From: an uncultured bacterium
GTDB taxonomy: Bacteria > Zixibacteria > MSB-5A5 > CAIYYT01
Assembly (NCBI GenBank): GCA_963726455.1
Contig: CAVSCK010000003.1
Span: 640,001 to 704,000 of the forward strand
Reading direction: 5' to 3'
DNA length: 64,000 nt
Part shown: positions 1 through 13,053 of the stretch, piece by piece
How positions within the stretch are numbered: the stretch's first letter is position 1
Layout: every line of letters begins with the position of its first letter
The notes under the pieces: generated by a model
Databases searched by the model: none
Seen by the model: only the letters and a program-made list of their open reading frames with translations
What the model was told of the DNA's origin: nothing
Translations under genes and position numbers: made by a program

Positions 1-879
1 ATCGACAAGAGCAAAGAGTTGGAGAAAGGCAATTTCTTCACTGCTGAGGAAGTCAACGACTTCAATCGCGCGTTCTTGATCGAGCGGCATCTGATTTCTC
101 CGGAGTTTATGCGCGATCATGACGCGGGAGCACTTTATGTGTCGCCCGACGAGAAGATCGCCATCATGATTAACGAGGAAGATCACATCCGCATCCAGGC
201 GATCAGCTCCGGCCTGTCGCTAATGGACACGCTGAGTCGCGCGATGAAGATTGATGACGACCTCGCAAACTCTCTGGAATTTGACTACGACACCGACTTC
301 GGTTTCCTGACATCCTGCCCGACCAACGTCGGCACCGGCCTGCGCGCATCGATACTCATTCATCTGGCCGGCCTGGTATTGACAAAGGAGATCGATTCGG
401 TTATCGATCACATAAACAAACTCGGGCTGGTCGTACGCGGCTTCTATGGGGAAGGCACCGATGTCTGGGGCAACCTGTTCCAGATTTCGAACCAGACGAC
501 TCTGGGACGTTCGGAAATGGACATCACGGAGTCACTGGAAAAGATCACCCGGCAGATAATTGAATTCGAAAACAAGTCTCGCGATCGCCTGCTCAGCGAA
601 GCGCGCGACGAAATTGCGGATAAAATCTGGAGAGCGTACGGCATTCTCAGGCATGCGCGCGTATTAACATCGGAAGAGGTCATGAATCTTCTGAGTGCAG
701 TACGGCTTGGCGTGGCGCTGGGAATATTGGACAAGGTGTCGATCGGTGTCGTCAACAAGCTCTTGATTCTCAGCCAACCGGCACACCTGCAGAAGTACAT
801 GGGCGTGGAATTGAGTCCCGGTGACCGTGATGTCGCCCGCGCCAAACTGGTCAGAGACACTCTGGCCGACTTGCCTTAG
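1..879 (+). CDS. mcsB: Protein arginine kinase McsB, 5' end outside window
   Basis: Phosphagen kinase motifs LIERHLIS, INEEDHIRIQ, LTSCPTNVGTGLRAS and FQISNQTTLG; directly upstream of clpC. Confidence 0.93.
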   Translation: MDKSKELEKGNFFTAEEVNDFNRAFLIERHLISPEFMRDHDAGALYVSPDEKIAIMINEEDHIRIQAISSGLSLMDTLSRAMKIDDDLANSLEFDYDTDFGFLTSCPTNVGTGLRASILIHLAGLVLTKEIDSVIDHINKLGLVVRGFYGEGTDVWGNLFQISNQTTLGRSEMDITESLEKITRQIIEFENKSRDRLLSEARDEIADKIWRAYGILRHARVLTSEEVMNLLSAVRLGVALGILDKVSIGVVNKLLILSQPAHLQKYMGVELSPGDRDVARAKLVRDTLADLP

Positions 880-904
880 GAGATTTGACTTAGCGGAGGT
901 ATAG

Positions 905-3361
905 ATGAACGAGATGTTTACAGAGCTCGCGCGCAAAGCAATCGAGTACGCGCGGGACGAAGCAGCGAGACTACGGCATGATTACATCGGTACCGAGCAT
1001 CTGCTGTTAGGTCTGATTCGCCTGGGGGAAGGACGGGCAATTGAGATTTTCCAAAACATCGGTTTGGATCTCAATGAGTTGGTGACTTCGGTTGAGGAAG
1101 TAGTGCAACCGGCGGGCGGAACGATGACCATGGGACAGCTTCCGCTAACCGCTCGCGCCAAGAAGACTCTCGAGGTCGCCGGACAGGAAGCGCGCGCCCT
1201 CAAGTCGAAAGAAATCGACACCGAACACATCCTCCTCGCCTTGTTGAAGGACGAAGAAGGCGTCGCCGCCCAGGTGATGTCGATGTTTGATGTCGACTAT
1301 AAAGACGTCTACGAGGAACTGAAAAATATCCAGAGCGGACAACCCTCCGCTTACGGAAAGAAGCGCAAGAAATCCAAAACGCCGGCGCTCGACCATTTCG
1401 GCAGAGACCTGACCGAGTTGGCGCGCCGTGGCAAGCTCGATCCTATCATCGGCCGTGACAACGAAATCGAACGCGTATCGCAGATTCTCTCGCGCCGTAA
1501 GAAGAACAACCCCGTTCTGATCGGCGAACCGGGCGTTGGCAAGACCGCGATTGTCGAGGGACTGGCTCAACGAGTCGTCAGCGGACAAGTCCCGCAAGTT
1601 CTGGAGAATCGTCGCATTGTCATGCTCGACATGGCTTCCCTGGTCGCCGGAACCAAGTACCGTGGCCAGTTCGAGGAACGCCTCAAGGCCGTAATGAATG
1701 AGATCACGAATTCACAGGATGTCATCATCTTTATCGATGAGCTGCATACCATCGTCGGCGCCGGTGGCGCCGAGGGTTCACTCGATGCGTCGAACATCTT
1801 CAAACCGGCGCTTTCGCGCGGCGAGTTGCAGTGCATCGGCGCAACGACCTTGAACGAGTATCGCAAATACATCGAGAAGGATGGCGCCCTCGATCGCCGT
1901 TTCCATACGGTGATGGTCGAGGAACCGTCGCAGGATGACACGATCCGAATCCTGCTGGGACTGCGCTCCAAGTACGAAGAGCATCATCAGATAGTGATTT
2001 CCGACGAAGCCATACGGGCCGCCGTGACTCTATCTGATCGTTACATCACCGGCAAATTCCAGCCCGATAAGGCCATCGACATCATTGACGAGGCCGGTTC
2101 GCGCGCTCATCTTTCGACTTATACCAAGCCGAAAGAGTTTACCGACATGGAGAACGAAATTGCCGGTATCGCGGTGCGCAAAGAGGATGCGGTCAAGAAC
2201 CAGGAATTCGAGAAAGCAGCCAAGCTGCGCGACGACCTCAAGTTGAAGAAGGAACAGTACGAGCAGATGAAGCGCGACTGGGAAGTAGCGCGACAGAACG
2301 AAAAGATCATTCTGCAGGAAGAGCACATCGCGGAGATCGTGGCCAAAATCACGGGCATTCCGCTGTTCCGCCTCGAGGAAAAAGAATCGAAGCGCCTGCT
2401 GAGGATGGAAGACGAACTAAAGAAGAAGATCATCGGCCAGAAGGAAGCCATCATGGCGCTCACGCAGTCAATTCGGCGCGCCCGCGCGGGACTCAAAGAT
2501 CCGCATCGCCCGATCGGTTCCTTCATCTTCCTCGGCCCCACCGGTGTCGGCAAGACCGAACTGGCGCGGGTGCTGGCGGAGTTCCTGTTTGAAAACGCCG
2601 ACGCGCTCGTCCGCATCGACATGTCCGAATACATGGAGAAGTTTGCGGTCAGCCGTCTGATCGGCGCGCCTCCGGGATACGTCGGTTACGAAGAGGGCGG
2701 ACAGCTTACCGAGAAAGTTCGCCGTCACCCCTATTCGGTGGTACTGCTCGACGAAATCGAGAAAGCGCATCCGGATGTGTTCAATATCCTGCTGCAACTA
2801 CTCGACGACGGCAATCTCACTGATTCGTTCGGACGCAAAGTTGATTTCCGCAACACGGTAATCATTATGACCTCCAACGCCGGCACGCGCGAAATCCGCT
2901 CGGGCAAGACGCTGGGGTTCGCCTCCGCGAGGATGGAAGAAGACTACGAAGAGATGAAGAAGTCGGTGCTCTCGGAAATGAAGCGCATCTTCAATCCCGA
3001 GTTGCTTAACCGCATTGACGAAGCCATCATCTTCCATCCGCTGGCGCTGGATCATATCGTTCAGATTATCGAAATCCAACTGGCAGAAATGGCCAAACGC
3101 CTGGCGGAACGCGGCTTGAGCATCCACGTCACCGACGAAGCCAAGAAGTTCATCGCCGAGAAGGGTTATGACCCGTTGTATGGTGCGCGTCACTTGAAGC
3201 GCGCCCTGCAGAAGCACCTGGATGATCCGCTTGCGGAAGAAATTCTGCGCGGCCAGTTCCATGGCGACTGCAACATTCTGGTCGACATGTCGGCGGAAAA
3301 GGACAAGTTGCATTTTTCGATCGATGTAACAGCGGAAACACCGAAGAAGGCGCCGGTTTAG
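905..3361 (+). CDS. clpC: ATP-dependent Clp protease ATPase subunit ClpC
   Basis: Two Clp-N repeats, Walker A motifs GEPGVGKT and GPTGVGKT, coiled-coil middle domain; GGAGG RBS. Confidence 0.96.
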
Positions 3362-3392
3362 ACTCGACTGACATTTCGAGATGCCCAAATAT

Positions 3393-3428
3393 CCGGGGCG
3401 GGTCCTTTGCCCGCCCCGGCTTGTTTTT
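3393..3428 (+). terminator. Rho-independent terminator after clpC
   Basis: 10-bp stem ccggggcggg/cccgccccgg followed by a T-rich tract. Confidence 0.8.
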
Positions 3429-3606
3429 GGGGTAGTCTGGATATCACTACACTACTGCACGAAAGTAATGTTGCTCGACAGTCTCGTCGTCTGAAAACGG
3501 AACGCCGGAGAAACCGCTTGTCGTGAAGGATCACGCGGATAACAACTTGACAATCAACATATTACGCTGGCATCGCCTTGTCGGCAGGCACGCCTCAAGA
3601 ATTTCC

Positions 3607-3634
3607 TTGACGATTTGGCGGCAGTGATTATAAT
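3607..3634 (+). promoter_or_regulatory. Sigma70-like promoter of rpmA
   Basis: TTGACG-N16-TATAAT about 60 nt upstream of the rpmA start. Confidence 0.65.
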
Positions 3635-3697
3635 AAGTGACTTGATTGGGATTCCGGCGCTCCGGAGCCCGCTGAACTTGATTGATCGGAGGAGATT

Positions 3698-3949
3698 TTG
3701 GCACATAAAAAAGGTTTAGGTTCATCGAAGAACGGACGGGACTCGAATTCCCAACGGCGTGGCGTTAAGCGTTACGGCGGCGAGGCGGTACTAGCCGGCT
3801 CGATCATCGTCCGCCAGTGTGGCACCAAAATGCTCCCGGGACGCAATGTCGGTATCGGTCGTGACAACACGCTCTTCGCCATGATCACCGGCGTCATCGA
3901 GTACGCCGACAAGGGCCGCCACAAGAAGGTCGTCCATGTCGTTCCCTAG
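3698..3949 (+). CDS. rpmA: 50S ribosomal protein L27
   Basis: [15 protein letters not shown] and [10 protein letters not shown]; TTG start after GGAGGAG. Confidence 0.97.
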
Positions 3950-3974
3950 CGATTGCCATTAGCGATGAATTGTG

Positions 3975-4002
3975 AAACCGGCCCGCTTGCGGGCCGGTTT
4001 TT
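3975..4002 (+). terminator. Rho-independent terminator after rpmA
   Basis: aaaccggcccg-cttg-cgggccggttt followed by T's. Confidence 0.85.
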
Positions 4003-4146
4003 GTGTTTGTGCGACGTGGTTAGCTAGAGAATTCATAGGATCGGGTATTTAGTAATCGTTACCCCCTCACGTATTCAGATAATACGGGATAACTCTTGAC
4101 TTGGCCCACTACCGTCTTGATCTTACGCCTTACTATGGAGCATCAC

Positions 4147-6465: not shown

Positions 6466-8390
6466 CTAGGGACAACTTGCACAGGGAGCCGGACCGCCCG
6501 AGAAGATGTAGCTGATGAGATAGACGACGTCCGAAATATCAACTCCGCCGGCACAATTCGCATCGGCTCTCGCGATCGGATTCGGCGCCGGGCCGCCCGA
6601 GAAGATGTACGCAATTAGAAACACACCGTCCGAAATATCGACCGCACCGGAAGCATCGGCATCACCACAGGTGTAAGGCGGCGGCGGCGCATCGGTAATC
6701 TTCATACTGCAACTCATTGTATCGACCTTGGACGGCACGCTGGCATCAGCGGTGGCGATTGTGAAGTAATAGGTCGCTTTGTAAGTCGGCGTGCCGGTGA
6801 TTGTTCCTTCGGTGCCGCCGGTAAAGGTCAGACCGTACGGCAGATCGCCGCCGACAAACGACCATTCATACGGCGCTGCGCCCCCGACTACCTGTAACTG
6901 GTAGGAATAGGGAACTTCTTTGTACCCATCGGGAATCTGATATGAGATGATATGCACTTCACCGTCGCAGTGGTCACCAATGCCGTTGTCATCTTCGTCT
7001 TCCTGGAGTGGGTTATAAACGTACGGACAGTTGTCGCATGCATCTCCCAGACTGTCATTGTCGCTATCCGATCTGCGAGGCATTACTCGCAAGCAGGCAG
7101 TTATCAACCGTATTCGGGATGCCGTCGCCGTCGAAATCATTCGTGTTGGCAATCGTCATCAACCATGCCACTGACGCCTTTACCATCCGCGTCATATACT
7201 CGAAATTCATGTGGGTCGTGCTGTCGCGTGGGCCGTGATAGTAAGTTGAAAAAGTGTACTCTGCCAGGAAAATGCCGTCATATCCCAACTGCGTGAACGG
7301 GAAATGATCGGAACCACTTGACCATCCCGCCAGATGACCGGTTATGCCGACCAGCGGCTGCGCAATGTTGATCCATGTTTGCGCGTAGCGGCTGCTGCTG
7401 CCATAGTAAAGATTGGAGTGCGCATTGTTGGACTCATGCGCGATCATATCCATATTGAACACCACCAGAATCTTGTCATGCCGGCCAGCGGCTTCCTGGG
7501 CAAAATGCGTCGAGCCGTTCAATCCCGTCTCTTCGGCATCGAATGCGACAAACAACACGGTCACGTTCAGAGTGGAATCCTTGAGCACGCGCGCCATTTC
7601 CAACACTCCCGCCGTTCCGGAGCCGTTATCGTCCGCGGCCGGACTGGCTGACACGCCGTCATAGTGACCGCAGACTACTACATAGACATCCGGGAGATAC
7701 TGCTCCGACTTTTTTCGCGACGACATTGAAGCCCGGCTTGGTCGTGCTCCCGACCTGAAAATCGAACGCATCCAGCGTCACGTCGTCATAACCGAAGCGA
7801 TGGAAACGCTGTACGATCGTGTCACGCGCGGCGTAAATGTTCGGCGTTCCGGCAGCGCGGCGATAAAACGCCTGCAATTGCTGCACGTAGTGCGTCAATG
7901 AATCCTGGTTGACCTGCTCCATGACGCCCTTCAGTCTTGCCAAATCGATACTGATCTTCTCCTGAACCACTGACGGCCGGTACGTGATAGCAATCGGCAA
8001 TCGCGGCACCGGCATAACATCCGTGGCTTCGGTGCCCTGTGCCAACACACCCGGGTCGACTTTGAACAGCCGCAATTGTTCCTCAGAAAACACGAGCTGG
8101 TATCGACTCACATTGAATTGATCCATTCGATGATCCAGGGCGAGTTCGTCACGACGGACATTCGCCGCCAGCAATTGCGTCGCCAGCCCGGACTGATTGA
8201 GCTTGGTAACCGCTGTCGGATCGGCTAGTACCAAATACCCGTCGCGCACCGCCACAATCGGCTCGGCGCCGACACTCACCAGCTTTTCGGCGTCAATTTG
8301 GCTTTGAACAGTAACCTTATAAAGATCGGCGGCCCCCGCAGAGGATACAAAGAGAAGAAAGAACGACAGAATCAGTAGAAATTGTCTCAT
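6466..8390 (-). CDS. Secreted M28-family metallopeptidase with TSP3-like Ca-binding repeats, Ig-like domain and C-terminal dockerin-like domain (frameshifted)
   Basis: Signal peptide; GHYD, ADDNGSG, AEETGL, NMDMI, SDHFPF and YHGPRD; DxDxDG..DNC repeats; tail [29 protein letters not shown] present twice. Confidence 0.85.
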
Positions 8391-8568
8391 ATGTTGATGC
8401 TCCAACAAAGGATGACGTGCTTTGGGCAAGTACCATTTTTCACAATATATCATAAAATTCTCGGTCTGTAAAGCTCATATATTGGCACGGTATGCCTTTT
8501 CGGATGTCGTACTGATTAGGTCGGCATTTGCGATCAGAAACTGACAGCTCTTGAAAGCGAGATGACTC

Positions 8569-8910
8569 ATGAACTCGTTCGATTGGACAAACGGATTCCC
8601 GGCGGCCATCACGGTCTGCGATAACGAAGGCATCATTCTCTCGATGAATGCCCGGTCTATTGAGACGTTCGCGAAGGATGGTGGCGCCGCGCTCATTGGA
8701 AAGAGTATTCTCGATTGTCACCCCGAACCGTCGCGCACTAAACTTCGCGAGCTCCTCGCCGCCGAGCGCAGCAACTGCTACACGATTGAGAAGAACGGCG
8801 TACACAAATTGATCTACCAGTCGCCCTGGTATCAGGATGGCAAGTACGCCGGCCTCGTCGAAATCTCGATGGAGATTCCGCACCCTATGCCGCATTTCGT
8901 CCGCACCTGA
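8569..8910 (+). CDS. Small stand-alone PAS-domain protein
   Basis: ITVCDNEGIILSMN...LIGKSILDCHP...YTIEKNG...GLVEIS. Confidence 0.8.
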   Translation: MNSFDWTNGFPAAITVCDNEGIILSMNARSIETFAKDGGAALIGKSILDCHPEPSRTKLRELLAAERSNCYTIEKNGVHKLIYQSPWYQDGKYAGLVEISMEIPHPMPHFVRT

Positions 8911-8951
8911 TTCTGCGGCTTGCGAATCGCGCCACTAGTTCGGTGCCGGAA

Positions 8952-9026
8952 CGTAACTTGCGCAGAAATCTATCCGCTTCTTCAGCGGCGGATGGTTGTA
9001 CTCCCAGAACTCGATAAACGCCGACG
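8952..9026. repeat. Direct repeat copy 1 (75 bp): displaced 3' end of the M48 peptidase gene
   Basis: Matches 11655-11729 at 73 of 75 positions; the minus strand reads SAFIEFWEYNHPPLKKRIDFCASY then VPAPN-stop. Confidence 0.93.
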
Positions 9027-9068
9027 ACATTTTGTTGGAATGGTTGCTCGTCTTCACAAAGAAAGGGC

Positions 9069-9097
9069 TTGACAAACAACGTACGGCATTATATGAT
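9069..9097 (+). promoter_or_regulatory. Sigma70 promoter of the radical SAM cassette
   Basis: TTGACA-N17-TATGAT, then GGAGG at 9111-9115 and ATG at 9125. Confidence 0.75.
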
Positions 9098-9124
9098 TTA
9101 TGGGGCTAGGGGAGGCAGAGTGGT

Positions 9125-10516
9125 ATGACGACAAATCGGTGGGCTGTTTCTTCCTTCAATTTCATTGTTCCCGTTTCTGACGAGAAGCACGTGGCGTACA
9201 ACGCGTTTTCGGGTGCACTCGCGGAGTTGGACGCCAAACAACTCGCCACTTTCAAAGACATATTGCAGGACCCAGAGGAGTATCTTCAACGTGCCGACGC
9301 GGACACATCCCTCTTTGCATCGATCGTCACTGCAGGATTCATCCATGATGCCGCAGTAAATGAACTCGATCTTATCAAGACAAAATCCGCACTCAATAGA
9401 TTCAATACCGAGCAATTTCATCTCACGATAATGCCGACTTTGGCCTGCAATTTCGAATGCCCATATTGTTACGAGAAGCAGGAACCAATCCTGATGTCAG
9501 ACAGCACTGAAGACGCCCTGGTGAGTTGGGTACAAAAGCGTGCAGAAGTTGCCCGAATCTTCACAGTCGCTTGGTTCGGTGGAGAACCATTATTGGCCTT
9601 AGACCGCATAGAGAGCACATCAAACCGCTTTCGAGCAATTTGTGAACGGCGAGGCATAAACTATTGTGCTAGCTTAACAACTAATGGCTACTTGCTCAAT
9701 GATCACGTGTGTGATAGACTCGCAGAACTTGGTATAGTGGGCGTACAAGTGACTATAGATGGCCCCAGGCATATTCACGATGTTCGCCGATATCTTCGCG
9801 GACGGGGTCCCACATTTGATCGCATTGTCAAAAATGTAGAGCACTTAGTCATCACACGACCTGAAATCGCCGTCTGGATACGAGTCAATTGCGATGAGAG
9901 CAACATTGACGAAGTCGGCCAAATCTTTGACCAGCTACCGTCACTGCTGGTGCAGCGAACAGATATCTATTTTGCCTTTGTATATTCCTGCCAGAGCTTT
10001 CTGGGCAACGCGGAGGATGTTGACGCAGCATCAACATGTGATCCTCATGGGAGCGCTGACTTGGAATTTAGGAAGAAACTTCGCGCCCTCCAATTGGAGA
10101 GTGTGAGAAGGAGGCGGGCCGTGAATCCATCGCCCGTCACGAAATTTGTGTTCAGGCCTCGCTGGGCCTATTGCGAAGCCGACTATGCGAACAAGTTCGT
10201 GGTTGATCCCAGGGGAGACTTGCATAAGTGCACTGTCTCATTCAGCCCGGAGTTGCGTGTTGGTAGGCTACTTCCGAACGGCGACGCGTTGTTTGACTTG
10301 CCCAAGCTTTCGATTTGGCTATCAAAGGACGCCTTCTCCTCTCCAAAATGCACCTCCTGCAAAGTACTTCCACTTTGCCTCGGTGGATGCCGCTCCGCGA
10401 CCTTACAGAATATTTCGGAAGGTAGATGCGCGACCTTACTCACGCCGGAGGAAGTTGAAAGGAGTCTGGGCTCCCTTTACGAACTTGTGAAATGCAGTTC
10501 CGGGGGGTCTGTATAG
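9125..10516 (+). CDS. Radical SAM/SPASM-domain enzyme, probable peptide maturase
   Basis: CNFECPYC, WFGGEPLL, TTNGYLL and VTIDG..HD; SPASM cysteines YCEA..DPRGDLHKC and CTSCKVLPLCLGGC..C; ~90-aa N-terminal extension. Confidence 0.93.
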   Translation: MTTNRWAVSSFNFIVPVSDEKHVAYNAFSGALAELDAKQLATFKDILQDPEEYLQRADADTSLFASIVTAGFIHDAAVNELDLIKTKSALNRFNTEQFHLTIMPTLACNFECPYCYEKQEPILMSDSTEDALVSWVQKRAEVARIFTVAWFGGEPLLALDRIESTSNRFRAICERRGINYCASLTTNGYLLNDHVCDRLAELGIVGVQVTIDGPRHIHDVRRYLRGRGPTFDRIVKNVEHLVITRPEIAVWIRVNCDESNIDEVGQIFDQLPSLLVQRTDIYFAFVYSCQSFLGNAEDVDAASTCDPHGSADLEFRKKLRALQLESVRRRRAVNPSPVTKFVFRPRWAYCEADYANKFVVDPRGDLHKCTVSFSPELRVGRLLPNGDALFDLPKLSIWLSKDAFSSPKCTSCKVLPLCLGGCRSATLQNISEGRCATLLTPEEVERSLGSLYELVKCSSGGSV

Positions 10517-10627
10517 CAGCAACCGCCCCCTTGGAACCAATTCGGCAGAAGCAATGCAAGACTATGTGGGTGGAACAAGATGTTCCGCCTGATTCTAGAC
10601 TCCTAAACACCGAGGGAGGTGAAACAC

Positions 10628-10741
10628 ATGAATCTCATGTTGCGTCCTCAATCATTGGAAGTGTGCGAACTCGTTGAGTTGCAGCCCATCATGGCACTCA
10701 ATATCTTGCTCTGTGGGCTGTGCTGCGTTAGAGTGACTTAG
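10628..10741 (+). CDS. Putative RiPP precursor, 37 aa: MNLMLRPQSLEVCELVELQPIMALNILLCGLCCVRVT
   Basis: Strong RBS GGGAGGTGA with ATG 5 nt after it; ATG to TAG; 4 Cys; directly downstream of the rSAM gene; below the ORF-track size cutoff. Confidence 0.8.
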   Translation: MNLMLRPQSLEVCELVELQPIMALNILLCGLCCVRVT

Positions 10742-10773
10742 CGATTCGGCACACACTCCGAAGCCGAGTGACA

Positions 10774-10799
10774 GCGGCGCAGCTGTGGGGCTGCGCCGC
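10774..10799 (+). terminator. Stem-loop after the precursor gene (mRNA-stabilising or attenuating)
   Basis: Perfect 10-bp stem gcggcgcagc/gctgcgccgc with no long U-tract. Confidence 0.55.
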
Positions 10800-10902
10800 G
10801 TACTAAAGAGAGAGATCAGGTGATGTCATCGCGAGCCCGTAGTACAGTCGCAAATAGGTCTTGCCTCAGTTGCTCTAATCACGGGACATTGGGGAATTGT
10901 CA

Positions 10903-11550
10903 GTGAAAACTCAGGTTGTCATAATCGGAACTATCCATCTCAGCGCATCCCTCTTTCCTCATTACGGTTCTTGGGTCCGGCAATCCGTAAAGAGATTGCA
11001 CCCCGACATAGTCTGTGTGGAACTCTCCCCTGAGCAGCTTGCAGGCGAAACAAGCATGGATTCGAAACCTGAATACTCTTCAGCCATTTTGCCGTCTGCG
11101 CGTGAAATAGGCGCAATCTTGGTTCCCATACAGCCTGTTACATCAGTAGGAGAGGAGTTTGAGCGGGTTAAGCTTGAATTTCTGGAGTACATAGCGTCCG
11201 ACAATCTTGAGCGGGAGCGGTGGGAAGTGTTCTGCCAATTAGAATCTGCCTGGCTGACGGGACTTACGGTTTGGCTGCAAGACGTACCGTCTATAATTGA
11301 TTTGCAGGACATCCGGCTAGACACGCTACTCTTTGAGCCGTGGTACTCCACGTTGTCAAGATTCTTTCCGGGCTTCGAGGCATTCTGGCGACCATGGAAT
11401 CAAGAATTACTTGGAGCTACTATCCAGGCCGTGCGAAGTCATCCTGGAAGACTCATACTCATAACAGTGGGAATGGCACACAGGTATTGGTTGCGCAAAG
11501 GTCTGCGAGCTCAGGAAGAGGTCGAGTTGCGTGATCTAAGGGAGTTTTGA
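10903..11550 (+). CDS. TraB/GumN/Tiki-like (EreA/ChaN superfamily) putative metallohydrolase
   Basis: VVIIGTIH, PDIVCVE and C-terminal LITVGMAH motifs; GTG start at 10903 (TTG at 10897 is an alternative). Confidence 0.6.
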   Translation: MKTQVVIIGTIHLSASLFPHYGSWVRQSVKRLHPDIVCVELSPEQLAGETSMDSKPEYSSAILPSAREIGAILVPIQPVTSVGEEFERVKLEFLEYIASDNLERERWEVFCQLESAWLTGLTVWLQDVPSIIDLQDIRLDTLLFEPWYSTLSRFFPGFEAFWRPWNQELLGATIQAVRSHPGRLILITVGMAHRYWLRKGLRAQEEVELRDLREF

Positions 11551-11631
11551 GCCAGCACAATCGCTTCTTGATTTACTCAGTGGAGGCGGCTTAGAAATGT
11601 GTCGGATTCTCTCGAAACAACACTCTCCCCA

Positions 11632-13053
11632 TCAAGGTTTGCTATTGATAGTCTCGTAACTTGCGCAGAAATCTATCCGCTTCTTCAGCGGCGGATGGCT
11701 GTACTCCCAGAACTCGACAAACGCCGACGGTTGCGGATTGGACAGATTCTCATTCGCCATCTTGACGAACGCCGAAATTCCGCTCGCCGGATCGTGTGTT
11801 AGGTCGAGCGCAAATCTGTCGGCATCATGTTCGATCTTGCGGGAAAAGCCGTTTATCACCGGATCCAGAAGGAACAGCATCAATCCCAACATGAGCATCA
11901 ACAACGGCAGACTGGCGATGTCCCCGACCGCTGAAAATCCGAAACTCGCTCCGAATTTCGCCATTACCCATCCGATCGTCTTGAAGACAATGAACAACAA
12001 AATCAGAAATATGACACTGAACAGCGCGATGCCGATCCAGATATGGTTGAGAACGTAGTGCCCCATCTCATGGGCCATCACAAACGCAACCTCATCAGGG
12101 GTCAACTTCTTGATCGTTGTGTCCCATAACACAATTCGCTTGGAGCCAAACAGCCCCGTCACATAGGCATTTATCTTCTGCGTCTGCGAGCTCATATCGA
12201 CTTGATAGACACGGCCGCCCGAAATTCCGGCTTTTTCCGCCATGCCGAGAATTCTGGCTGACAGCACCTGATCCTGCAGAGGTTCGAACTTGTTGAACAT
12301 CGGTTCGATGAACACCGGCAGAATTACCATGACGATTATCATGATCGGAATCGCGGCCACACCGATCCAGAGCCACCAATCACGCGCGCGCCTGCGAATG
12401 CCCCAGTAGGCGAACGTCACCAGCACCGTCAATGAAAGCGTCATTAGGTAGCTCGATTTGATCGTGTCGGCCAGCCAGTTCCCGAATGTTTGCGTCGACA
12501 GATTGAAATGGTGTTCGATCACGAAATCGCGATAGTACGACAGCGGCAGCCCCACCACTTGCAAAATCAACGTCAGTATGACGATGAAGAACACTTGCAC
12601 AGCAAGACCGCGATGCCGCCCGGCAAGCATCCCCACGACGCCCCAGGCGACTGCTATGAAAATCCCCCCCGCCCCTACCGGCTGCTTGTCGGTCGCGCTC
12701 ATGAATGCCAACAGCAACGCAATCAGCAGCGCCAGACCTCCTCCGAGCCACATCGGCGCCGATTGTTGGTGCAATTTGTCCGTCAGCTTCTCGGAGACGC
12801 TCCGTATTCTGCGCGAAAAACCAAACCAGAGAATACCCGCCAACACCAGCAGACTAAACGCAGTCGAGAAGAAATACCAACCGTCCCTGAAGTTCGAAAA
12901 TATAATTGCCTGCTCGACCTTGTCGGGTGTCAGCACCGACGTAATCTCGCCTGGAACTGTGCTCAGGTCGACGCTCTTGTCAATCCCGATCGTGCTGATG
13001 CCAAAGATCAGAAACAGCAGCATCAAAAGTACTGGCCAAATAACCTTCTTCAT
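11632..13053 (-). CDS. M48 (Ste24/HtpX-like) membrane zinc metallopeptidase
   Basis: NAYVTG, AHEMGH, EHDADRFA and SHPPL..RI; multiple TM helices. Confidence 0.92.
   Translation of the reverse strand: MKKVIWPVLLMLLFLIFGISTIGIDKSVDLSTVPGEITSVLTPDKVEQAIIFSNFRDGWYFFSTAFSLLVLAGILWFGFSRRIRSVSEKLTDKLHQQSAPMWLGGGLALLIALLLAFMSATDKQPVGAGGIFIAVAWGVVGMLAGRHRGLAVQVFFIVILTLILQVVGLPLSYYRDFVIEHHFNLSTQTFGNWLADTIKSSYLMTLSLTVLVTFAYWGIRRRARDWWLWIGVAAIPIMIIVMVILPVFIEPMFNKFEPLQDQVLSARILGMAEKAGISGGRVYQVDMSSQTQKINAYVTGLFGSKRIVLWDTTIKKLTPDEVAFVMAHEMGHYVLNHIWIGIALFSVIFLILLFIVFKTIGWVMAKFGASFGFSAVGDIASLPLLMLMLGLMLFLLDPVINGFSRKIEHDADRFALDLTHDPASGISAFVKMANENLSNPQPSAFVEFWEYSHPPLKKRIDFCASYETINSKP
11655..11729. repeat. Direct repeat copy 2 (75 bp), inside the 3' end of the M48 peptidase gene
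   Basis: 73/75 identical to 8952-9026. Confidence 0.93.

Follow-up and report, generated by a model that had tools for sequence, protein, structure and literature searches.

A 64,000-nt stretch of DNA from an uncultured bacterium of the phylum Zixibacteria (contig CAVSCK010000003.1 of assembly GCA_963726455.1, forward-strand positions 640,001 to 704,000; hereafter the window, numbered from its first letter) contains a cluster for a peptide that is ribosomally synthesized and modified after translation (RiPP), in which the gene for a radical S-adenosylmethionine (SAM) maturase with a SPASM domain is followed by the gene for a 37-residue Cys-rich precursor and by that for a small TraB/Tiki-like protein. 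The cluster is real and of a known kind; its precursor family is new and its accessory enzyme atypical, and it most likely makes a cross-linked Cys-rich peptide. We consider it probable that the region arrived by horizontal transfer, as a minimal RiPP cassette of three genes, and works as proposed below. An earlier note on this DNA, made from its letters, had described a precursor-maturase-peptidase cassette; the pairing of maturase and precursor is supported by the comparisons that follow, the TraB-like gene is conserved in all four genomes that encode this type of precursor, and the peptidase part is kept here as a candidate role.

The maturase exceeds the thresholds of Pfam Radical_SAM (PF04055; 62.8 bits, cut-off 29.5) and of the SPASM domain TIGR04085 (46.4 bits, cut-off 27, residues 350-429), in agreement with the SPASM radical SAM gene named in the earlier note. 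Across 26 aligned sequences the cysteines of the CX3CX2C cluster motif (C108, C112 and C115) and C369 of the SPASM domain are invariant, and C350, C409, C412, C418 and C422 are nearly so. Read from the sequence, the SPASM pattern is C350-x13-G-x4-C369 ... C409-x2-C412-x5-C418-x3-C422 ... C434, and its seven cysteines, C434 included, fit two auxiliary 4Fe-4S clusters. An AlphaFold (AF2) model of the enzyme has a predicted local distance difference test score (pLDDT) of 83.1; in this model residues 1-92 form four strands followed by helices, a predicted leader-recognition domain resembling a RiPP recognition element (RRE). The best fold match is CteB (5WHY and 5WGG; E = 1.8e-18, template-modelling (TM) scores 0.66/0.72), which aligns over the full length (467 columns for 5WHY) and is also the best sequence match in the PDB (E = 1.1e-9); SuiB and TigE are among the other fold matches, and the sulfatase maturase anSME, which has no N-terminal domain, aligns over ~397 columns. 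Clustering with protein-modifying enzymes such as anSME had been named in the earlier note as an outcome that would speak against a peptide maturase; the full-length alignment to the RRE-bearing CteB, and not only to the RRE-less anSME, points the other way, and an anSME-like protein maturase is rejected on the predicted RRE domain together with the conserved neighbouring peptides. Prediction of a complex between the full-length maturase and the 37-residue peptide gave scores of 0.03 and 0.05, where the mark is 0.32; without controls, these are evidence neither way.

Among curated maturase families the highest score is that for TIGR04463, 268.8 bits over residues 11-426; this is about half of the cut-off of 525, and the enzyme is therefore not a member. 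The scores for the Clo7bot (TIGR04334; 246.1 bits, cut-off 600), CefB (NF038107; 186 bits, cut-off 600), geopeptide (159.7 bits, cut-off 400), PapB (NF047865; 104.5 bits, cut-off 340) and SCIFF (TIGR03974; 71.8 bits, cut-off 425) maturases are lower still, and sister enzymes from three other genomes of the phylum (G161, G155 and G192) reach 218-228 bits on TIGR04463. By these scores the maturase lies outside all curated families, yet among the maturases of Cys-rich peptides. SPASM enzymes that carry an N-terminal peptide-binding extension and are encoded beside short Cys-rich open reading frames (ORFs) install Cys-to-carbon thioethers, as in the sactipeptides and ranthipeptides.

Comparisons within the phylum drew on a set of 285 genomes, the window genome (G000) counted in, 96 of which encode a relative of the maturase at E <= 1e-40. 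The nine closest homologues (L069-L077) are 35-38% identical to it, at 300-384 bits, and each has one to six small Cys-rich ORFs directly downstream on the same strand. These ORFs begin with M-x-hydrophobic-hydrophobic-x-x-P at seven of the nine loci; L073 and L074 are a near-identical pair in which the peptide start differs. A tree of 26 enzymes places the window maturase in a clade of ten with 99% support, the enzymes of G161 and G155 being the nearest rows, and puts two paralogues of the window genome in other clades. A contig scan with the maturase returned 44 loci whose best segments are mostly ~22-34% identical, a few short ones reaching 36-39%; no TraB-like gene occurs in these loci, bar one weak match in L026 (E = 0.009). 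At distant loci of this kind (e.g. L009, L032 and L034) the Cys-rich precursors lie upstream, and the loci are too far removed for testing the window peptide.

Both paralogues of the window genome stand in RiPP-like clusters of their own. In the first (L002, G000:C1:33977-38203, ~1468-4082) the 453-residue paralogue, 33% identical to the window enzyme, is followed by a 33-residue ORF with two cysteines, whose ATG overlaps the paralogue's stop and whose start reads M-R-F-I-E-Q-P, and then by a 344-residue radical SAM/SPASM-like ORF. The second (L003, G000:C4:936869-941035, minus strand, 214-3675), the third cluster of this genome, holds a 416-residue paralogue (29% identical), a second radical SAM protein of 370 residues and, upstream of the 416-residue paralogue, two small Cys-containing ORFs of 34 and 39 residues with the common start M-I-Y-L-I-D-P-Q.

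Precursors of the window's type are encoded in four genomes: two in G161, six in G155, one in G159 and one in the window. They are 37-41 residues long, and across all ten M1, P7, G30, C32 and C33 (window numbering) are invariant, while the first core Cys and a Thr/Ser four residues behind the Cys pair are nearly invariant. The family start can be written M-x-[FL]-[MIL]-x-x-P, which in the window reads MNLMLRP, and the family end G-x-C-C-x-x-[ILV]-[TS]. The latter pattern, placed at most four residues from the stop, is present in nine of the nine related peptides of other genomes and in a single one of the 102,695 stop-to-stop ORFs of at least 20 residues in the window genome, the 37-residue ORF itself. 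The strong ribosome-binding site that the earlier note had seen ahead of this tiny ORF is there (Table 1), and GGAGGTGA-type Shine-Dalgarno sites stand ahead of the G161, G159 and G192 peptides with identical spacing. Taken together, position, length, spacing and motif make it unlikely that the ORF arose by chance. Of seven peptides scanned against NCBIfam at E <= 1, none matched a model, in keeping with the earlier note, which had not recognised the precursor as belonging to a known family; the peptides thus appear to form a small, conserved and new precursor family without a curated model. In G159 (L128, G159:C321, ~1908-3592) the maturase gene is split in two by an in-frame TAA, either as a pseudogene or through an assembly error, and the peptide and TraB-like genes look intact.

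The third gene encodes a protein of 215 residues whose motifs GTIH (residues 9-12), VCVE (37-40) and GMAH (190-193) had all been listed in the earlier note; its start is the GTG at 10903 and not position 10904. The Tiki/TraB superfamily is defined by two G-x-x-H motifs and conserved acidic residues, and both are found here, as GTIH and GMAH and as E40 and E57. In an alignment of 41 family members P34, E57, P64 and G190 are invariant and T10, H12, E40, W165, N166, H193 and W196 nearly invariant. Scanned singly at E <= 1, 22 of the 41 members match DUF5694, 16 match TraB_PrgY_gumN and four match the ChaN family; the window protein lies below the gathering score of PF01963 (15 bits, E = 0.023, cut-off 26.8). 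A word-indexed homologue search returned the protein itself and one relative with 34% identity, and an exhaustive search returned 143 representatives at E <= 0.001, 48 of them at E <= 1e-10. The predicted structure has a pLDDT of 95.9, and a search of the PDB with it gave no match at E <= 0.001. Its top fold match is the esterase EreC, a weak one (probability 0.96, TM score 0.36), and the Ere-like BcR135 is also among the top matches. Motifs, family matches and fold make the assignment of the earlier note to the TraB/Tiki group a reasonable one at the level of the superfamily. Judged by eye, the protein has no evident N-terminal signal-like, membrane-spanning or long hydrophobic stretch. In a tree of the family the window protein sits on a long branch without resolved placement, and the proteins of G161, G155 and G159 share a supported clade with loci that have no cassette.

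A TraB-like gene is present in 28 of the 285 genomes (G000 included), and it directly follows the peptides in every one of the four genomes with 'G-x-C-C' precursors (G161, G155, G159 and the window); in G192 it lies 1.7 kb upstream of a cassette with poly-Cys peptides. That no 'G-x-C-C' cassette is without it speaks for a role of the protein there. The earlier note had proposed to look for a conserved peptide and a TraB-like gene beside homologues of the maturase: Cys-rich peptides accompany nine of nine, peptides of the same type occur in four genomes and a TraB-like gene adjoins them in all four, but the C-G-L-C-C spacing of the window peptide is not conserved. The fullest cassettes, those of G161 and G155, encode in order a sigma-54 activator with tetratricopeptide (TPR) repeats, the maturase, the peptides, the TraB-like protein, a DrrA-like ATP-binding cassette (ABC) ATPase and an ABC-2 permease. 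Among the sister cassettes with poly-Cys peptides, L070, L071, L075, L076 and L077 have a conserved DUF4097 ('toastrack') protein of ~280 residues encoded upstream of the maturase, and in L070 and L073-L076 a fused ABC exporter of 588 residues is encoded downstream in place of the TraB-like and ABC-2 pair.

On the mechanism that we propose, the first residues of the precursor (MNLMLRP...) would dock on the N-terminal RRE of the maturase, and the SAM cluster held by C108, C112 and C115 would generate a 5'-deoxyadenosyl radical that takes a hydrogen from a residue of the peptide core. A thiol of the C32/C33 pair may then form one or more thioethers, helped by the two SPASM clusters, and the product would be a ranthionine or a sactionine; we infer this thioether chemistry for the window maturase from the features described above. 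The near-invariant Thr/Ser would be the most attractive acceptor at the spacing C33-x3-T37, which is favoured because it is analogous to the C-x3-acceptor spacing of PapB and to the Cys-Thr link of thermocellin. The TraB/Tiki-like protein, as a cytoplasmic metallohydrolase, would remove the leader or trim the peptide, and in the sister cassettes the ABC-2 pump would export the product; the window copy lacks this pump.

The cassette is a recent, probably horizontally acquired insertion within the 3' end of the gene for an M48 peptidase (11632-13053, minus strand; Pfam Peptidase_M48 and Peptidase_M48_N). It is flanked by two copies of a 75-nt direct repeat (Table 1), and in two genomes of the same genus, G002 and G003, the site is empty: a PAS-domain gene directly abuts the M48 gene, and both flanks of the window align to a single copy of the repeat. 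The native M48 tail and stop run on beyond the left repeat copy to 8935, and this orphaned tail ends in YVPAPN and a stop, the corresponding M48 tails of G002 and G003 ending in YTPKTN and YTPKSN; it is contiguous with the PAS-domain gene, as in the relatives. The functional M48 gene, which contains the right copy, has received a new C-terminal tail from the right end of the insert. The repeat, the empty sites and the difference between orphan and new tail therefore delimit the insert as given in Table 1. The GC fraction drops in the maturase gene, to 0.47-0.48 over 9000-9999, versus 0.53-0.56 in the flanks, and a search of 20 further genomes of this family found the TraB-like gene in none. 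Of the features of an integrative element, the insertion shows direct repeats on both sides and relatives whose site is empty; it has no recombinase of its own, as the ORF list of the 2,628-bp insert contains the maturase, the peptide, the TraB-like protein and small ORFs and no recombinase or integrase gene. Either a single crossover of a ~2.7-kb circle bearing the 75-nt segment or homology-facilitated illegitimate recombination would fit the arrangement.

Table 1. Features of the inserted cassette and its borders (window positions)
Feature	Position	Strand	Basis
Left copy of 75-nt direct repeat; orphaned native M48 3' end	8952..9026	-	97% identical to 11655-11729
Inserted cassette, 2,628 bp	9027..11654	+	empty site in same-genus G002 and G003
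Sigma-70-type promoter-like site, TTGACA-N17-TATGAT	9069..9097	+	consensus match, 11/12 positions
RRE-radical SAM-SPASM peptide maturase, 463 aa	9125..10516	+	Pfam, NCBIfam, predicted fold
Shine-Dalgarno site GGGAGGTG of precursor gene (GGAGGTG, 7 nt upstream of ORF)	10613..10620	+	
Precursor peptide, 37 aa, start M-x5-P, end G-x-C-C-x-x-V-T	10628..10741	+	motif, position, relatives
GC-rich hairpin, 11 bp, between precursor and TraB-like genes	10774..10799	+	folding; no U-tract
Second small ORF, 28 aa, 3 Cys	10820..10906	+	TGA overlaps GTG start of TraB-like gene (GTGA)
TraB/Tiki-superfamily hydrolase-like protein, 215 aa	10903..11550	+	GTG start; family alignment, models
New M48 C-terminal tail, ETINSKP and stop, from right end of insert	11632..11654	-	homology to relatives begins only ~11665
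Right copy of 75-nt direct repeat, within functional M48 gene	11655..11729	-	repeat comparison, relatives, tail comparison

M48 peptidases also adjoin TraB-like genes elsewhere. In the metagenome locus L063 (1842-4053) and in G153 (L111/L130, G153:C100, 2198-4757) a TraB-like gene stands divergently beside a gene for an M48 peptidase 43-47% identical to that of the window; LepA is encoded downstream in both, and the two loci are syntenic, such that the TraB-like/M48 neighbourhood recurs in two independent arrangements, one in the window and one in these loci. A link between the precursor and the adjoining M48 (Ste24-like) protease by way of a CAAX box was considered and rejected, as the last Cys lies four to eight residues from the C-terminus and not three, and as the M48 gene is older than the insertion. 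Outside the insert, the ORF list contains a minus-strand ORF at 6466-7152 with two C-terminal dockerin-like D-x-D-x-x-G-x-V-D-I-S-D repeats, which adjoins a peptidase-like ORF at 7064-7771.

The promoter that the earlier note had placed ahead of the maturase gene and the GC-rich hairpin that it had placed behind the tiny ORF are both found (Table 1). The promoter-like site is the best of five in 8500-12000, where shuffled sequences give 2.7 +/- 1.8 sites. A look-up of sequencing runs for 8900-11760 listed none, RNA included. A 96-nt stretch with the hairpin folds at -38.4 kcal/mol (z = -2.57), and five of 200 shuffles fold equally well; a terminator scan gave no sites, and no run of T follows the hairpin. 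Similar hairpins separate the last peptide from the TraB-like gene in G161 and G159 (-21 to -27 kcal/mol in 45-nt segments; the shuffle control applies to the hairpin of the window). The 28-residue ORF between the hairpin and the TraB-like gene does not begin with M-x5-P, and the sister cassettes showed no counterpart of it; it may serve for coupling or be a product of chance.

Several observations weigh against the reading of the region as a working RiPP cassette. Those on the precursor concern its membership of the family: a profile hidden Markov model (HMM) built from its nine relatives gives the window peptide 1.7 bits, outside the top 20 ORFs of the genome; the peptide has no counterpart of the middle motif P-x-P-[DE]-L; its cysteines are spaced C-G-L-C-C, three residues shorter than the C-x5-C-C of the family; and the C-terminal pattern was defined after all ten peptides had been seen. 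Because the HMM score is non-significant, homology of the window peptide rests on position, length and post hoc motifs. The cassette itself has no sigma-54 activator and no ABC-2 exporter, and the window genome encodes no close homologue of the sister ABC-2 permease, the best match being 25% identical; the earlier note had likewise reported no dedicated transporter, and none is seen in the ORF list of the cassette. The branches of the maturase and of the TraB-like protein are long (1.09 and 1.64). Finally, the TraB-like gene is usually found elsewhere: in 23 of the 27 other genomes of the phylum that have it, no radical SAM gene lies within 1.5 kb, and at six loci (L098, L113 and L118-L121) it stands directly behind, or overlaps, a sodium:solute symporter gene (Pfam SSF confirmed for two). 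A scan of metagenome contigs with a ten-row TraB-like alignment gave nine loci, none of which has a radical SAM gene, and of these L063, L066, L067 and L068 have an upstream flank of at least 1.5 kb (none of four). Because the TraB-like family occurs mostly in unrelated contexts, the family as a whole is not RiPP-specific, and for the same reason the peptidase role of the window protein is one that we infer.

This last point bears on the alternative that survives best, which keeps the same maturase and precursor and gives the TraB/Tiki-like protein an accessory part in self-protection or export, by hydrolysing or sequestering the peptide in the producer, or makes it an Ere-like esterase acting on another bond. 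PrgY/TraB has a proposed role in enterococcal pheromone shutdown, to which such self-protection can be likened. In G161 and G155 the TraB-like gene overlaps the ABC ATPase gene, which precedes the ABC-2 permease gene, and the pairing of a TraB-like gene with an ABC ATPase, with or without an ABC-2 permease, recurs without a radical SAM gene in G062, G063 and the metagenome locus L062. The six members behind symporters suggest a general link to transport and not the removal of a leader, and hint at a family acting on transported small molecules or peptides; the top fold match, moreover, is an esterase. PrgY/TraB proteins, however, span the membrane, unlike the window protein as judged by eye, and the EreC match is weak (see above). 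The window cassette also retains the TraB-like gene without the exporter, which is easier to understand if the protein carries out a biosynthetic step. An accessory role is thus possible, though we consider it doubtful.

A second alternative accepts the precursor and disputes the chemistry: the maturase would install a modification other than a thioether, such as a C-C or C-O cross-link, an epimerisation or some other change at Cys. The enzyme is under the curated cut-off of every named family, and SuiB and TigE, which have a similar SPASM architecture and are among its fold matches, carry out other chemistry. On the other hand, the invariant residues of the peptide core are G30, C32 and C33 alone, joined by the near-invariant Thr/Ser, each of the four curated families with the highest scores acts on Cys-rich substrates, and CrpC, PapB and CteB make thioethers (for the first two by the excerpted text of PMC13692751 and PMC9413430, for CteB by PDB titles). 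We therefore regard non-thioether chemistry as unlikely.

A third alternative takes the cassette for a remnant, decaying or orphaned, that was acquired without its regulator and pump and is drifting without a functional product. It lacks the sigma-54 activator and ABC-2 exporter of G161 and G155, it has one divergent peptide where relatives have two to six, this peptide fails the family HMM, and both the maturase and the TraB-like protein are on long branches. Yet all three ORFs are intact, the cluster cysteines of the maturase and the conserved residues of the TraB family are all retained, and a near-consensus promoter-like site and strong Shine-Dalgarno sites are in place; the in-frame TAA of the G159 maturase gene illustrates what decay looks like in this family. 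The window cassette may be a minimal or a decaying copy, but a drifting remnant without product is decidedly improbable. That the 37-residue ORF arose by chance and the maturase acts on a protein or peptide encoded elsewhere is highly improbable, since, for all that the HMM score is not significant and a second small Cys-containing ORF (10820-10906) lies in the cassette, no other ORF of the genome has the motif, which stands exactly between two conserved genes, the length and the M1-to-P7 spacing agree with those of relatives, a conserved strong Shine-Dalgarno site precedes the ORF and downstream peptides occur at nine of nine homologues.

The reading of the region as a minimal RiPP cassette accords with known systems. 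The general kind is well known, the peptide family being new and the TraB-like helper atypical, and by sequence and predicted structure the system resembles the SPASM thioether RiPP pathways of the CteB, PapB and CrpC type while lying outside the curated families. The SCIFF maturase CteB shares the succession of RRE, radical SAM core and SPASM domain with two auxiliary clusters; its substrate, CteA, is also Cys-rich, and a thioether is its product. In contrast, identity in the fold alignment is 17-18%, the window precursor is unrelated to SCIFF and encoded downstream, and the partner genes differ. The Clo7bot, CefB and PapB enzymes belong with the window maturase in a broad clade of SPASM maturases for short Cys-rich peptides, although the window enzyme is below all three cut-offs. 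In its excerpted text PMC9413430 has PapB linking Cys to Asp or Glu. Enzymes of TIGR04463 likewise have the RRE-radical SAM-SPASM arrangement and act on Cys-rich substrates with an N-terminal recognition region, and one of them, CrpC of Methanococcus voltae, installs ranthionines; by the excerpted text of the same report, however, CrpC acts on large repeat proteins, as against the 37-41-residue peptides described here, and the cluster members given there are CrpA, CrpB and CrpC, with no TraB-like partner among them (PMC13692751).

The window's third protein shares paired G-x-x-H motifs and conserved Glu residues with the superfamily of TraB/PrgY/GumN, Tiki, ChaN and erythromycin esterase, and differs in being short and apparently soluble. 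The earlier note knew of no TraB/Tiki-fold partner as a standard RiPP component. This stands as far as thioether pathways go: a literature search, with supplementary cluster tables outside its range, found no TraB/Tiki protein with a radical SAM thioether RiPP cluster, bar the graspetide case described next; DUF5694 was named in no paper, and the leader-protease review PMC10885120 has no occurrence of TraB or Tiki. It does not stand for graspetides, since Makarova et al. (2022) describe, in the excerpted text of PMC8939145, 'branch 2' loci that encode Tiki/TraB peptidases together with SPASM radical SAM maturases, and propose leader cleavage for the peptidases of this family. Those loci, on the same excerpt, are built around ATP-grasp ligases, whereas the window insert has no ATP-grasp gene, as its sizeable ORFs number only three.

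Much new peptide chemistry comes from radical SAM/SPASM RiPPs, and a maturase clade that has neither a curated enzyme model nor a curated peptide model, and is common in one uncultured phylum, offers new targets. The window contains the smallest version, whose three genes in 2.5 kb make it well suited to heterologous expression, and the insertion, with its flanking repeats and the empty sites of sister species, gives a clean natural illustration of cassette gain. More tentatively, and more likely wrong than right, small soluble TraB/Tiki-fold hydrolases might constitute an unrecognised class of RiPP-processing enzymes, leader peptidases or C-terminal trimmers strictly coupled to peptides that end in G-x-C-C-x-x-[ILV]-[TS], and the unit might be passed on as a 2.7-kb module without a recombinase, entering an M48 gene at its 3' end through 75 nt of homology. 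If the TraB/Tiki-like protein proves to act as the leader peptidase, the RiPP toolbox would gain a protease superfamily, and a first biochemical approach would be opened to a family of 143 representatives.

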